Below, piece by piece: positions 1,776 through 8,097 of a DNA stretch of 39,953 bases. The stretch lies in IMG/VR virus record IMGVR_UViG_2563366923_000006; one strand, written 5' to 3'. The notes below the pieces were generated by a model that saw nothing but the letters and a program-made list of their open reading frames with translations, made no database searches and was not told the origin of the DNA. The position numbers and the translations under genes are program-made. Every line of letters starts with the position of its first letter. Within the stretch, counting starts at the first letter, position 1. Source of the stretch: a virus. Lineage: Duplodnaviria > Heunggongvirae > Uroviricota > Caudoviricetes.

Positions 1776-2600
1776 TCAGGCGGTGAAAGTACCAATAAAG
1801 GTTTCTACTTTGCTGTCTTTGAATTTTTCAACAAGCAGATCACGAAATTCGTTAGCCATTTCTTCCTGCACTGCTTCCAGCTGAATAATGCGCAGAACCA
1901 GTACAGGGCGATCACCAGTGATAATGCTGAGTCGTAATTTAAATGGACGTTCTTTCAGGCCTTCAAACGGAACGCATTTAAATTCAAATGCCACTGGCAT
2001 AATGTCTTTGGTCTTCGCTTCGACAGACTCCATCAGGGAGCGTTTGCCGCTGAAGTCATTGTCTTCAAAATCAGCAGTCTGGTTCGCTTCAATTGTGATT
2101 TTACGGACCGCCGCAGCCGCTTTTGTTGCCTGAATAGCGTCACCATTAGCATCAAAGCCCACAAGGTAGTCGGCCCAGTCTTCAATCCATTCTGCCAGTG
2201 ACTTCTGGGAGTTACGCTCGCCGTTAACAGACAACAGGGCAGAGAACGGTGCTGTCTTTTTCAGTTTGAGAGTGGCGGTGTTATCTGCGTGACCTGGTTC
2301 ATCAATAGTACCCAGGTTAAGCACACTGACTGCTCGCATATTATCGGCATCGATAAAGCAGCGGGTGCCTTCATCTGCAAGATCTTTAGAATAACGGGTA
2401 AAGTCATCGATGCTGGCAGTGGAAAGCGCACCACGGAAACGGAAGCGATTTAAATTAAATTTTTCCAGATCATGAATGCGGAAATTCTCAGGCAATGCCA
2501 CAGCATCGGCACCAATCTTACTGATAATTTCATTAACACCCTGAGCAGAAATAAGGGCATGGATTTGATTAATTGCGGTTGCGTCTAAGTTCTGAGACAT
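1776..2600 (-). CDS. YfdQ-like (DUF2303) phage protein
   Basis: 274 aa, same length and character as the CPS-53 prophage protein YfdQ (recalled); GAGGA SD 8 nt upstream. Confidence 0.7.
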
Positions 2601-3208: not shown

Positions 3209-3464
3209 GCCAAGACTACACACAGCATAAAGTTGTGGTGCCGGGTGCCTCCCGGTGCCTGGCGAAGGTTGCACACCAGGCGGGTGGGTATCCACAGAAG
3301 GTCGACTGTCAGCCTCAACCTTAACCCGCGTGCGCTGAGCCGCATTCACCACAACGCTAAGGATTCTCTCTGGTTGAAAATACTTAGCTGTTATGTGCCT
3401 GTCTTTTCACCACTTCAGGCTCGGTGGTATCCTTTTAAGCCCGTATACATAAAAGGAAAATCAA

Positions 3465-3710
3465 ATGACTTTTGATGAAAAAGAACTTGATAATGCAATT
3501 AATAAAATCATCGTAACGTCGCTCTTTTCCTGTCTCAGCGACACTCAGCAGAAACAGTTCTACGAATCGGCTTTCAACATGATCGAGCGTTGTTGTTTCT
3601 GCGATGCCGACGAGTTACCTGAAAAAATCAGGAAACAGTTGGCTGATGCTCTTCGAGTGCGACTTTCTGACCAATTTTCTGAAATGTGCTCTCCGAATTT
3701 GGACAAATAG
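3465..3710 (+). CDS. Hypothetical small protein
   Basis: 81 aa; AAGGAAAA upstream of ATG; overlaps the 3' end of a convergent minus-strand ORF. Confidence 0.35.
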   Translation: MTFDEKELDNAINKIIVTSLFSCLSDTQQKQFYESAFNMIERCCFCDADELPEKIRKQLADALRVRLSDQFSEMCSPNLDK

Positions 3711-3903
3711 AAAAAGGCCATTTCCATTCAGGGTCTGATGGAAATACTTCAGCCTGTTCCAAAGCACGGCGTAAAGAGAATACACCTCCAGCCATAATCT
3801 GATGTTTCCCATTGGTCCAGCTATCGCCGCTCTGATCTACAGGAGCGGCTATGTCGTATGACCAAACGACTTCACCACTATTGTTTAAAATCTGGACTTT
3901 CAT
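3628..3903 (-). CDS. Hypothetical small protein, second gene of early-left operon
   Basis: 91 aa; 8 bp downstream of the zinc-finger gene; GGAGG upstream. Confidence 0.4.
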   Translation of the reverse strand: MKVQILNNSGEVVWSYDIAAPVDQSGDSWTNGKHQIMAGGVFSLRRALEQAEVFPSDPEWKWPFSICPNSESTFQKIGQKVALEEHQPTVS

Positions 3904-3911
3904 TTTGTTCT

Positions 3912-4115
3912 TTAACCTCCAGATTTCCGCGCATCTAAAGGCGCATTCTCATTTGGTGTGAACTGAATAGTTGTGCTGATATTGATTAATGCCCCGACAC
4001 ACAAGACTACGCACTCAGAGCAGATAGCAACTTCATCTTTTCCGCCTTTGGCGATGATTTTTTTTGCCTGCAGCTCGTTTGCGCCACAAAACGAGCATGT
4101 GAAATAACGGTTCAT
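3912..4115 (-). CDS. Small ClpX-type zinc-finger protein (C4), first gene after the PL-like promoter
   Basis: CSFCG...CSEC motif closely matches the ClpX N-terminal zinc-binding domain signature (recalled). Confidence 0.5.
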   Translation of the reverse strand: MNRYFTCSFCGANELQAKKIIAKGGKDEVAICSECVVLCVGALINISTTIQFTPNENAPLDARKSGG

Positions 4116-4299
4116 TTGCGCTCTCTTACACATAGTATTTAACGAATCATCCGGTCATTCATACGCCACCGGCGGCTACTTCGTGTTCGTCCTGACTGTT
4201 CGTTTTTGACATTTACTGACCGCTTACGACACATGCACCATGCACCGTGTTGCAACTAGATTTTGTTGTAATCCTGTAGTTGGTCTGGAACAAAAGATA

Positions 4300-4350
4300 A
4301 AATTAAAATGCGATATACGCAAGTAATATTTTGCGAGATGTGCAAAATTA
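4300..4350. promoter_or_regulatory. OL/PL-like operator-promoter region (TGCGATATACGCA and TTGCGAGATGTGCAA elements)
   Basis: TTGCG/CGCAA half-site motifs shared with the cI-cro intergenic region. Confidence 0.4.
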
Positions 4351-4356
4351 TGGGTG

Positions 4357-4380
4357 ATAAAAAGCCACCTTTCGGTGGCC
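4357..4380 (-). terminator. Rho-independent terminator downstream of the repressor gene
   Basis: On the minus strand: GCCACC-GAAA-GGTGGC hairpin followed by TTTTT. Confidence 0.55.
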
Positions 4381-4399
4381 GATGGATGGGATATTGAAG

Positions 4400-5092
4400 T
4401 TAATTATGTCTCTTAAGGGTTTGCGACTGACTGATTAAGACCTTTCCAAAGACCATGAATCGGTGTTCGTTTTCGCTAGTAATTCCCCATTCACGGTAAA
4501 TCTGGTTATCAGAAATCACCAGCAGTTTGTCAGGAATCATTTGAAGTCTTTTAACGTATATTTTGTCATCAAAACCAAAGACATATATACCATCACCATC
4601 AAACTGATTGATGCTGACATCAACGAAGATGAGATCTCCTGGCTCAATGGTTGGACACATACTGTCCCCACGAACGTTGATAACTTTGATGTGATTGGCT
4701 GGTCGTCCGCCGAACATTGATACAGCATTATCAGTTCTGTATTCGATGGCATGAATCACATCAATGACATCACCGCCCTGGATAAGGCCATTTCCCGCAC
4801 TGGCACTGATATCCAACATTTCAATACGGAACACATCCTTCACCTGCGCAACATCCTCATCATTACTGTTTTTATATACAGTATTACTTTTGAGGGCAGA
4901 GGTAAAGAGATCAGCAATATCAACACCTAAGCTCTTGGCAATATTACTCAGTGTTTGTTCGGTAAATTGTTTCTGCTTACCCGTTTCTAAGCGCGAGATG
5001 TTCGCCGCATCTACTCCTATTGCTTCAGCGAGATCGGCGATTTTCATGTTCTTCGCTTGGCGAAGTTGTCTGACTCGTTTTCCTATGTTCAT
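4400..5092 (-). CDS. cI: CI-like phage repressor (XRE HTH + S24 LexA-like peptidase domain)
   Basis: N-terminal HTH; C-terminal S24-type domain; divergent from a Cro-like gene. Confidence 0.85.
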   Translation of the reverse strand: MNIGKRVRQLRQAKNMKIADLAEAIGVDAANISRLETGKQKQFTEQTLSNIAKSLGVDIADLFTSALKSNTVYKNSNDEDVAQVKDVFRIEMLDISASAGNGLIQGGDVIDVIHAIEYRTDNAVSMFGGRPANHIKVINVRGDSMCPTIEPGDLIFVDVSINQFDGDGIYVFGFDDKIYVKRLQMIPDKLLVISDNQIYREWGITSENEHRFMVFGKVLISQSQTLKRHN

Positions 5093-5189
5093 GCGTTTAT
5101 TACATTTCTTTATTGCGTGATAAGCAAATCAACTTGCGCAAAATACTTGCGTGAAATAACATGCATAACGCGCAATATTTGGAGGATAT
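5093..5189. promoter_or_regulatory. OR-like operator/promoter region between repressor and cro-like genes
   Basis: Repeated TTGCG(T/C) and CGCAA half-sites at 5113-5127, 5134-5141, 5148-5155, 5168-5175. Confidence 0.55.
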
Positions 5190-5450
5190 ATGCAATCACC
5201 ATTACGAAATGTGCGTAAGGCGCATGGTTTCACTTTGCAGCATGTTGCTGCGGGTGTTCAAGTCAATCCAGCGACGTTGAGTCGTATTGAGAGGCTGGAG
5301 CAGATTCCATCTATCGAGCTTGCAGAACGTTTAGCCAATTTTTTTAAGGGTGAAATCAGCGAAATGCAGATTCTTTATCCGGCACGTTTTCAATCTAGCC
5401 AAAACCAGAATGGGTTTAAACCACAGGAACAGGAGGTGAACCGTGGGTAA
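5190..5450 (+). CDS. Cro-like HTH regulator
   Basis: 86 aa XRE-type HTH; divergent from repressor; GGAGG SD. Confidence 0.7.
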   Translation: MQSPLRNVRKAHGFTLQHVAAGVQVNPATLSRIERLEQIPSIELAERLANFFKGEISEMQILYPARFQSSQNQNGFKPQEQEVNRG

Positions 5451-7280: not shown

Positions 7281-7771
7281 TCATGAGTCTTTTGAATGAA
7301 GTTCAGAAATTCATTAAAGCCCATCCGGGGTGTACTTCCGGAGACATTGCGGATGCTTTTGCAGGTTACTCACGGCAGCGCGTTCTGCAGTCAGCAAGCA
7401 AGTTACGTCAGAGTGGGCGTGTGGCTCACCGTTGTGAAGGAGATACACGCAGACATTTCTCGCGCCTGACTGAGAGAGCGCAGGAGCCGGAACCACAACC
7501 AGTTCGTGAAACCAGACCTGTGCGCAAGTTCTATGTCGGCACTAACGACCCCCGGGTGATTTTGTGCCTGACCCGCCAGGCTGAAGAACTGGAGTCCAGG
7601 GGCTTATACCGTCGTGCTGCAACGGTGTGGATGGCGGCATTCCGTGAAAGCCATTCCCAGCCAGAACGAAACAATTTTCTGGCGCGTCGTGAGCAGTGTT
7701 TACGGAAAAGCAGCAAGCGCGCTGTATCGAGTGATGAGTGGTATCTGTCAGGGAATTACGTGGGGGCGTAA
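7277..7771 (+). CDS. Hypothetical phage protein, possibly regulatory
   Basis: 164-aa ORF translationally coupled to neighbours. Confidence 0.5.
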   Translation: MIMSLLNEVQKFIKAHPGCTSGDIADAFAGYSRQRVLQSASKLRQSGRVAHRCEGDTRRHFSRLTERAQEPEPQPVRETRPVRKFYVGTNDPRVILCLTRQAEELESRGLYRRAATVWMAAFRESHSQPERNNFLARREQCLRKSSKRAVSSDEWYLSGNYVGA

Positions 7772-8097
7772 TGACGACGTTAACTCAATGCCAGCAGCAG
7801 GTGCTGGATATGCTGATTTCTTACCAGAAAGAACGTGGCTTCCCGCCAACCAATCAGGAGGTGGCAACCATGCTGGGATACCGTTCGGTGAATGCAGCGG
7901 TGGAGCATCTTCGAGCACTGGAGAAAAAAGGCGTCATCACGATAAAGCGTGGCGTGGCCCGGGGGATAACGCTTCATACCGCGATGAAGGACGACGACAG
8001 CGAGGCGGTCGGGATTATCCGCGCACTGCTTGCCGGTGAGGAAAACAGCAGGCTGCGTGCAGCCCACTGGTTACATGAGAGGGGCCTGAAAGTATGA
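7771..8097 (+). CDS. LexA N-terminal DNA-binding-domain-like protein without peptidase domain
   Basis: MTTLTQCQQQVLDMLISYQKERGFPPTNQEVATMLGYRSVNAAVEHLRALEKKGVI resembles the LexA winged-helix domain; TAATG coupling. Confidence 0.6.
   Translation: MTTLTQCQQQVLDMLISYQKERGFPPTNQEVATMLGYRSVNAAVEHLRALEKKGVITIKRGVARGITLHTAMKDDDSEAVGIIRALLAGEENSRLRAAHWLHERGLKV

Follow-up and report, generated by a model that had tools for sequence, protein, structure and literature searches.

Can a temperate phage interfere with a host protease by carrying a free relative of that protease's substrate-docking domain, and is this what the first early-left gene of the virus record IMGVR_UViG_2563366923_000006 is for? 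The stretch of 39,953 nucleotides analysed here (hereafter the window) is a lambdoid E. coli prophage resembling SfV, SfII, CPS-53 and e14. A preliminary description had proposed that its early-left operon opens with a free protein of about 67 amino acids (aa) that resembles the ClpX N-terminal zinc-binding domain (ZBD) and is followed 8 bp later by a 91-aa partner, and that the first of these could act as a decoy protecting the phage's O-like initiator or could modulate ClpXP.

The open reading frame in question (3912-4133, minus strand) would encode 73 aa if begun at its first ATG (4133). The ATG at 4115, which is also the RefSeq start, gives 67 aa plus stop (3912-4115, minus strand), and this product (MNRYF...) lines up with all homologues at their MN.Y start, and in these homologues an AGGAG Shine-Dalgarno sequence lies upstream; the gene assignment draws on Pfam, fold, RefSeq and pN/pS. 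The four cysteines are spaced C7-x2-C10-x21-C32-x2-C35 (CSFCG...CSEC), and the protein matches the Pfam family zf-C4_ClpX (PF06689) over profile positions 2-34 of 39 (E = 1.4e-10; 41.3 bits, above the gathering score of 27 bits). C7/C10 and C32/C35 align with C14/C17 and C36/C39 of ClpX, with a 3-residue insertion vs. ClpX in the hairpin loop separating the Cys pairs, and phmmer against the PDB matched the protein to ClpX ZBD chains only (2ds5, E = 2.5e-4). Besides the four cysteines, residues specific to ClpX are kept (CSFCG with Phe16, the K-L/I-I-A-G strand, ICxECV and the L-C of the helix), and Phe16 is present in every sequence of the homologue alignment; the Ile46 equivalent varies among homologues (A/T/V/I/K/L), and the Tyr34 equivalent is an invariant Ala in the family. 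Identity to ClpX amounts to 34-37%, and the NCBIfam ClpX model (NF003745 / TIGR00382) is matched at positions 6-43 of 418 only (25.8 bits vs. a cut-off of 359). The protein is the domain alone, lacking both the AAA+ ATPase module and the IGF loop, and is not a ClpX. The domain assignment itself was already known, as the protein is entered in RefSeq/PGAP (WP_001083098.1) under the name 'ClpX C4-type zinc finger protein'; its PHROGs family (phrog_5259) is annotated as of unknown function, and a literature search for phage or orphan ClpX zinc fingers and for phage ClpX inhibitors returned nothing relevant and no paper on the function of this protein.

We built an AF2 monomer model from seven family members, in which the ZBD core (residues 1-45) reached a pLDDT of 70-81 and the tail was disordered. 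Foldseek placed this model on the ClpX ZBD structures 2ds5/2ds6/2ds8 (target-normalised TM 0.78-0.81; rmsd 1.5-1.7 Å; probability 1.00) and found no fold other than the ClpX ZBD below E = 1. The predicted fold is a treble clef of two beta-hairpins and a C-terminal helix, an assignment that we consider solid, and the model presents the protein as essentially a bare ClpX-type treble-clef zinc-binding domain with a short tail. The proposed free ClpX-type zinc finger of about 67 aa is thereby borne out by the PF06689 match, the PDB sequence matches and the AF2 fold: the alignment and structure comparison with the ClpX N-domain that had been suggested as a check gave a fitting Cys spacing and a model that superposes on the three ClpX structures, and the protein proved to be neither a known antiterminator nor another characterised early protein. 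With E. coli ClpX it shares the Pfam family, the treble clef (TM about 0.8), the four cysteines, CSFCG, K-L/I-I-A, ICxECV and the LC helix; unlike ClpX, it has no AAA+ module, begins its domain at the N-terminal Met and has a more hydrophobic helix.

Comparison with homologues gave a pN of 0.14-0.19 and a pS of 0.67-0.93, with synonymous sites saturated, and a dN/dS of about 0.1-0.2 where computable; these values indicate that the ZBD core is under strong purifying selection and that the gene is functional. Only the ZBD core of ~46 residues is conserved across the family, and the tails vary. The tail in the window is short and non-conserved, and its last codons derive from a recombination junction, being part of the shared sequence upstream of the 91-aa gene discussed below.

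Homologues of the ZBD protein occur in the Salmonella phages 118970_sal3 and F1055, as a very common 112-aa protein of Salmonella prophages and in a metagenomic prophage, and several unrelated phages carry orphan ZBDs (Salmonella 118970_sal3, Pseudomonas PP9W2 and Bacillus phage G). The other phage orphan ZBDs (118970_sal3 gp052, F1055 gp38, the PP9W2 'Clp protease' and phrog_5259/20296/12435) belong to the same family or fold, and those of the Salmonella phages hold the same first-after-repressor position as that of the window, from which they differ in their tails and, in some cases, by further fused domains. A profile search of 1.84 billion representatives yielded 632 matches at E ≤ 0.001; the best 150 of these 632 were mostly short orphan or tandem ZBD proteins and included only two of ClpX length (416 aa), both near the bottom. 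With ClpX-length proteins at this rank and an identity to ClpX of 34-37%, the family is not a recent capture of host clpX. A Pfam scan of sampled profile matches revealed fusions to OTCase and MshEN and many proteins with 2-4 tandem ZBDs. Since such fusions and orphan or tandem ZBDs are common outside phages, the ClpX-type ZBD fold is a general interaction module. One metagenomic protein of 2505 aa (P0016) has 37 stretches matching the ZBD profile. Within our loci, two 121-aa proteins (L120/L131) consist of a ZBD fused to a C-terminal domain of ~70 aa that stands without a ZBD, as a 94-aa protein, in the same genomic slot in L076. Among the ZBD homologues with extra C-terminal parts (L120, L131, P0009, P0010, P0013 and P0021), another such addition is a motif that recurs at the C-terminus, I-x-I/V-x-F-x-x-A/S-P. 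Both this motif and the L120-type domain are missing from the window protein.

The gene order supports the placement of the ZBD gene at the head of the early-left operon. Upstream of it lie a 230-aa cI-type repressor with HTH and S24-peptidase domains (4400-5092, minus strand; domain and RefSeq annotation), the intrinsic terminator of the repressor gene (4363-4380, minus strand; also annotated in SfII) and an OL/PL-like operator region (4290-4350), read from the sequence by the repeats it has in common with OR (5100-5180); the operator-like repeats (CGCAAAATA..ACTTGCG) occur in both the PL-like and the OR (cI/cro intergenic) regions. A consensus sigma-70 promoter scan of the window returned no PL, and inspection by eye gave weak candidates only. 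The 'PL-like region' named in the preliminary description is supported by synteny (cI, its terminator and the operator-like repeats), and the order after the cI-type repressor agrees with its statement that the ZBD gene is the first open reading frame of the operon. In six loci found via the protein, the ZBD gene is likewise the first open reading frame behind a cI-type repressor, in the same orientation and ~200 bp downstream, and the repressor beside ZBD homologues has an S24 peptidase domain wherever its domains are on record.

Alignment with blastn showed that the match of SfV and SfII to the window stops at position 3905 and resumes at 4141; between these points the two phages have 45 bp and the window 235 bp. 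The segment missing from these two phages (3906-4140, minus strand) holds the ZBD gene, which is a discrete, optional cassette directly behind a conserved leader RNA; because of this position, ZBD is the first protein made from the PL transcript upon infection or induction. The whole 1.2-kb arrangement is present in 121 of 5426 complete E. coli genomes, and near-identical prophages without the ZBD cassette exist, so that the cassette is dispensable. We considered and rejected a link between ZBD and one immunity/replication module, as the cassette was seen beside no fewer than three different PL/operator flanks, and every one of these flanks is also known from loci that lack the cassette. The replication initiators beside ZBD differ by locus as well (HTH_36, Phg_2220_C or O-like), and because of these differing neighbours no link to an O-like initiator, or to any specific protected client, is indicated. 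In the leader itself, the window carries a 7-nt tandem duplication (GGTGCAT GGTGCAT; 4233-4246, minus strand) relative to SfII.

The 91-aa gene that follows (3628-3903, minus strand) belongs to the SfV orf33 family (phrog_3195). It is a real gene, with homologues of 57-63% identity that are conserved along its whole length. It begins 8 nt past the ZBD stop, with a GGAGG within the last ZBD codons, so that the two are probably translationally coupled; orf33 is nonetheless an independent module. The description of it as the 'partner' of ZBD did not hold up, as each gene is found without the other: orf33 alone is the first early-left gene in SfV, vB_EcoM-720R4, SKA5 and Rac-like prophages (L012-L015), and ZBD occurs without orf33 in six loci (L003, L004 and L007-L010), including Salmonella prophages, where other open reading frames follow. 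Because each occurs alone, orf33 is not an obligate partner. Its AF2 model was poor (pLDDT 44), and it had no Pfam, NCBIfam or PADLOC match. Its conserved companion, instead of ZBD, is a convergent 81-aa gene (phrog_3311; 3465-3710, plus strand); the two genes share 83 bp at their 3' ends. L015 has an equivalent pair (1824-2105, plus strand, and 2032-2262, minus strand) at 62-63% protein identity, the 3' overlap measuring 74-83 bp across the two loci. PADLOC, NCBIfam and Pfam returned nothing for the 81-aa protein. The annotation of this pair is divided: PGAP calls only the 81-aa gene and leaves orf33 unannotated, whereas in SfV the authors annotated orf33 alone.

Immediately upstream of the ZBD cassette, ~65 nt (4141-4205) are conserved and form the body of a structured leader RNA (4135-4209, minus strand; P1, P2, the linker CACGAAGUAGCCGCC and P3), which we delimited by a covariance model, R1, and by covariation. 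R1 matched the window once (84.9 bits, E = 1.6e-22), with no second (PR) copy. The structure was derived from 73 distinct sequences, and a pattern scan of IMG/VR gave about 90 family members (L016-L135). It has three helices, namely an outer stem (P1) and two hairpins, the invariant P2 (GGC-AGGAC-GCC) and P3, with the conserved linker CACGAAGUAG between the hairpins. In the alignment 94.9% of cells were paired (vs. 19-40% with slid partners), 10 of the 16 pairs had changed on both sides, and the covariation score was 0.47 (vs. ≤0.11 for slid partners). In the window and in L001, P2, elsewhere invariant as GGC...GCC, reads GUC...GAA with one pair lost (4172-4192, minus strand); four other ZBD-bearing loci (L065, L088, L117 and L135) keep the P2 consensus.

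The RNA is conserved in SfV (L006), SfII, ST64B (L011) and Salmonella phages, and is found also in phages of Yersinia, Pectobacterium, Citrobacter, Klebsiella, Pantoea and Aeromonas and in T5-like Providencia phages. It is present in 1845 of the 5426 complete E. coli genomes, always unannotated, including the e14 element of E. coli K-12, where it lies between ymfK and ymfJ (L137, 2499-2574). A scan of 3300-5300 against Rfam 15 at E ≤ 10 and a literature search with its sequence both returned nothing relevant to it, and we regard the leader RNA, which is missing from Rfam 15, as previously undescribed. An identity with the put-like RNAs of HK022/HK639 was rejected, since the annotated putL-like RNA of HK639 is dissimilar and R1 has no match in HK639. 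We also discarded a 31-aa arginine-rich open reading frame (MCRKRSVNVKNEQSGRTRSSRRWRMNDRMIR; 4139-4234, minus strand) as an N-like gene: the Salmonella phages keep neither its start nor its stop, and because of this and of a conservation pattern that is that of RNA stems it is probably no gene. The conserved stretch is non-coding.

In SfV-type loci a TTGACA-16-CATAAT promoter precedes the start of the RNA by about 8 nt. A hairpin that follows the RNA in these loci was examined as a PL terminator and rejected because it is oriented for the opposite strand, and for the same reason it offers no evidence for antitermination. In L020 (1331-1350) and in many SfV-type loci, this hairpin is strong, lies directly after the RNA and would terminate transcription in the direction of PL and cI. 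The leader RNA is a candidate cis-acting element of N-less lambdoid phages, in which it may serve in processive antitermination or in some other leader function.

Behind this RNA, the first open reading frame is far from constant. Among the ~90 IMG/VR loci it is ZBD in 8 and orf33 in about 11, and in the remainder it is one of dozens of unrelated open reading frames of 40-120 aa; eight of these alternative proteins were scanned and gave no Pfam domain, and PADLOC and NCBIfam returned nothing for them either. Because the first open reading frame varies in this way, ZBD is one option in a hypervariable slot for the first early gene. The slot looks like a hot spot of first-expressed accessory genes, which possibly serve host takeover or anti-defence.

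What, then, might a free ClpX-type ZBD do as the first protein of an infection? Small phage proteins that blunt host AAA+ proteases are known: in lambda, RexB shields O from ClpXP and CIII inhibits FtsH, and in T4, PinA inhibits Lon. Of these, rexB lies between cI and PL, a position that adjoins that of the ZBD cassette, and cIII lies within the PL operon. The ZBD protein has no sequence or fold kinship with any of the three, and to our knowledge none of them mimics a protease domain. Among host proteins, the stress-regulated anti-adaptors IraD/IraM/IraP bind RssB directly; their folds are unrelated to that of ZBD, and the outcome (stabilised sigmaS) would be the same if the phage ZBD were to sequester RssB.

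We suggest, tentatively and at somewhat less than even confidence, that the ZBD protein mimics the ClpX N-domain and dampens N-domain-dependent degradation by ClpXP. Its own dimer might titrate the ligands of the ClpX ZBD (adaptor tails of the SspB/RssB type, trigger factor and substrates of the lambda-O/MuA type), or it might pair with ClpX's own N-domains; by either route N-domain-dependent degradation would be selectively dampened, substrates recognised by the pore (ssrA tags) would be spared, and the phage would benefit in that labile proteins, its own or those of the host, would be stabilised early. In ClpX, the ZBD is the docking site of SspB, RssB and trigger factor via a hydrophobic pocket with Phe16 and Ile46 among its residues, is needed for the degradation of lambda O, which also uses the pocket containing Phe16 (PMC7804408), and is a dimerisation domain (as PMC7804408 relates, citing Wojtyra 2003). 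The isolated ClpX ZBD inhibits RssB-mediated degradation of sigmaS in trans in vitro (PMC7226468). Given this published docking and in-trans inhibition, a free homologue, abundant and expressed early, could titrate ligands or pair with ClpX. The recombinant ZBD resembles the phage protein in being free of the motor, and shows that such a molecule is able to inhibit ClpXP degradation that is adaptor-mediated and N-domain-dependent (PMC7226468; Wojtyra/Thibault as reported in PMC7804408); it is, however, a laboratory fragment of ClpX, whereas the homologue in the phage is natural and diverged.

Mimicry is the best-supported mechanism because conservation tracks the ClpX-specific pattern beyond the metal ligands. 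In its favour are the Pfam, PDB sequence and fold matches, the retained Phe16, the purifying selection, the conserved first position, the confinement of conservation to the core and the recurrence in unrelated phages; against it are the variable Ile46, the change of Tyr34 to Ala, the loop insertion, the absence of a recent clpX capture, the general use of ZBDs as modules, the dispensable cassette and the differing initiators. It is somewhat less likely again that the mechanism extends further, such that enterobacterial temperate phages would deploy a trans-acting ClpX N-domain mimic as their first early protein, from the hypervariable slot behind the leader RNA, and with it titrate adaptors or N-domain-dependent substrates or poison N-domain dimers.

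The same observations can be read differently. The ZBD protein may instead be a small zinc-stabilised scaffold for dimerisation or interaction, whose target is unrelated to ClpX (a host defence, a restriction or a transcription component) and which is one of many interchangeable takeover or anti-defence genes in the slot. That the slot holds dozens of unrelated small open reading frames, with no Pfam domain in the eight scanned, fits this reading, as do the fusion of the ZBD in L120/L131 to a domain that occupies the slot alone in L076, the tandem arrays and fusions to unrelated enzymes, and the loss of the Ile46 and Tyr34 equivalents; conservation that follows ClpX beyond the Cys ligands speaks against it, no result points to another target, and PADLOC gave no match. 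Because ZBDs are common outside phages in both orphan and tandem form, we hold a role unrelated to ClpX to be possible, and about as likely as a decoy.

Two further roles are considerably less probable. As an adaptor rather than an inhibitor, the protein would pair with the ClpX N-domain or sit on the ring, and its variable C-terminal part would recruit a target for ClpXP; the dimerisation of the ClpX ZBD reported in PMC7804408 (after Wojtyra 2003) would allow this, and the C-terminal parts of the homologues do vary, including the separable domain of L120 (vs. L076) and the I-x-I/V-x-F-x-x-A-P motif. The window tail, however, is short, non-conserved and, at its end, derived from the recombination junction with the region upstream of orf33, and we judge this role unlikely. 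The protein could also be pictured as a replacement for lambda N, an antiterminator acting on the leader RNA, as it sits at the position of N, right after the structured RNA, in an operon where no N-like protein was detected. Yet it lacks an arginine-rich motif, it stands behind the RNA in only about 8 of the about 90 IMG/VR loci found via the RNA pattern, and SfV and SfII have the RNA without ZBD; this role is essentially excluded.

Were the ClpX mimicry that we tentatively favour to be true, the ZBD protein would be the first natural inhibitor that copies the substrate-docking domain of an AAA+ protease, and ClpX would join the proteases tuned by temperate phages at the lysis-lysogeny decision (FtsH via CIII, Lon via PinA). 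It would also provide a compact tool, of about 46 residues, for turning off the N-domain-dependent branch of ClpXP only, that is, the branch that handles lambda O, MuA, SspB-assisted ssrA substrates and RssB/sigmaS. At present the main value of the protein is that it marks an accessory-gene slot and the conserved leader RNA that adjoins it.

In the early-right operon of the window, a 119-aa protein (7738-8097, plus strand) consists of a LexA-type DNA-binding domain only; it is named 'LexA family protein' by RefSeq in L001, and the same gene is present in SfII.
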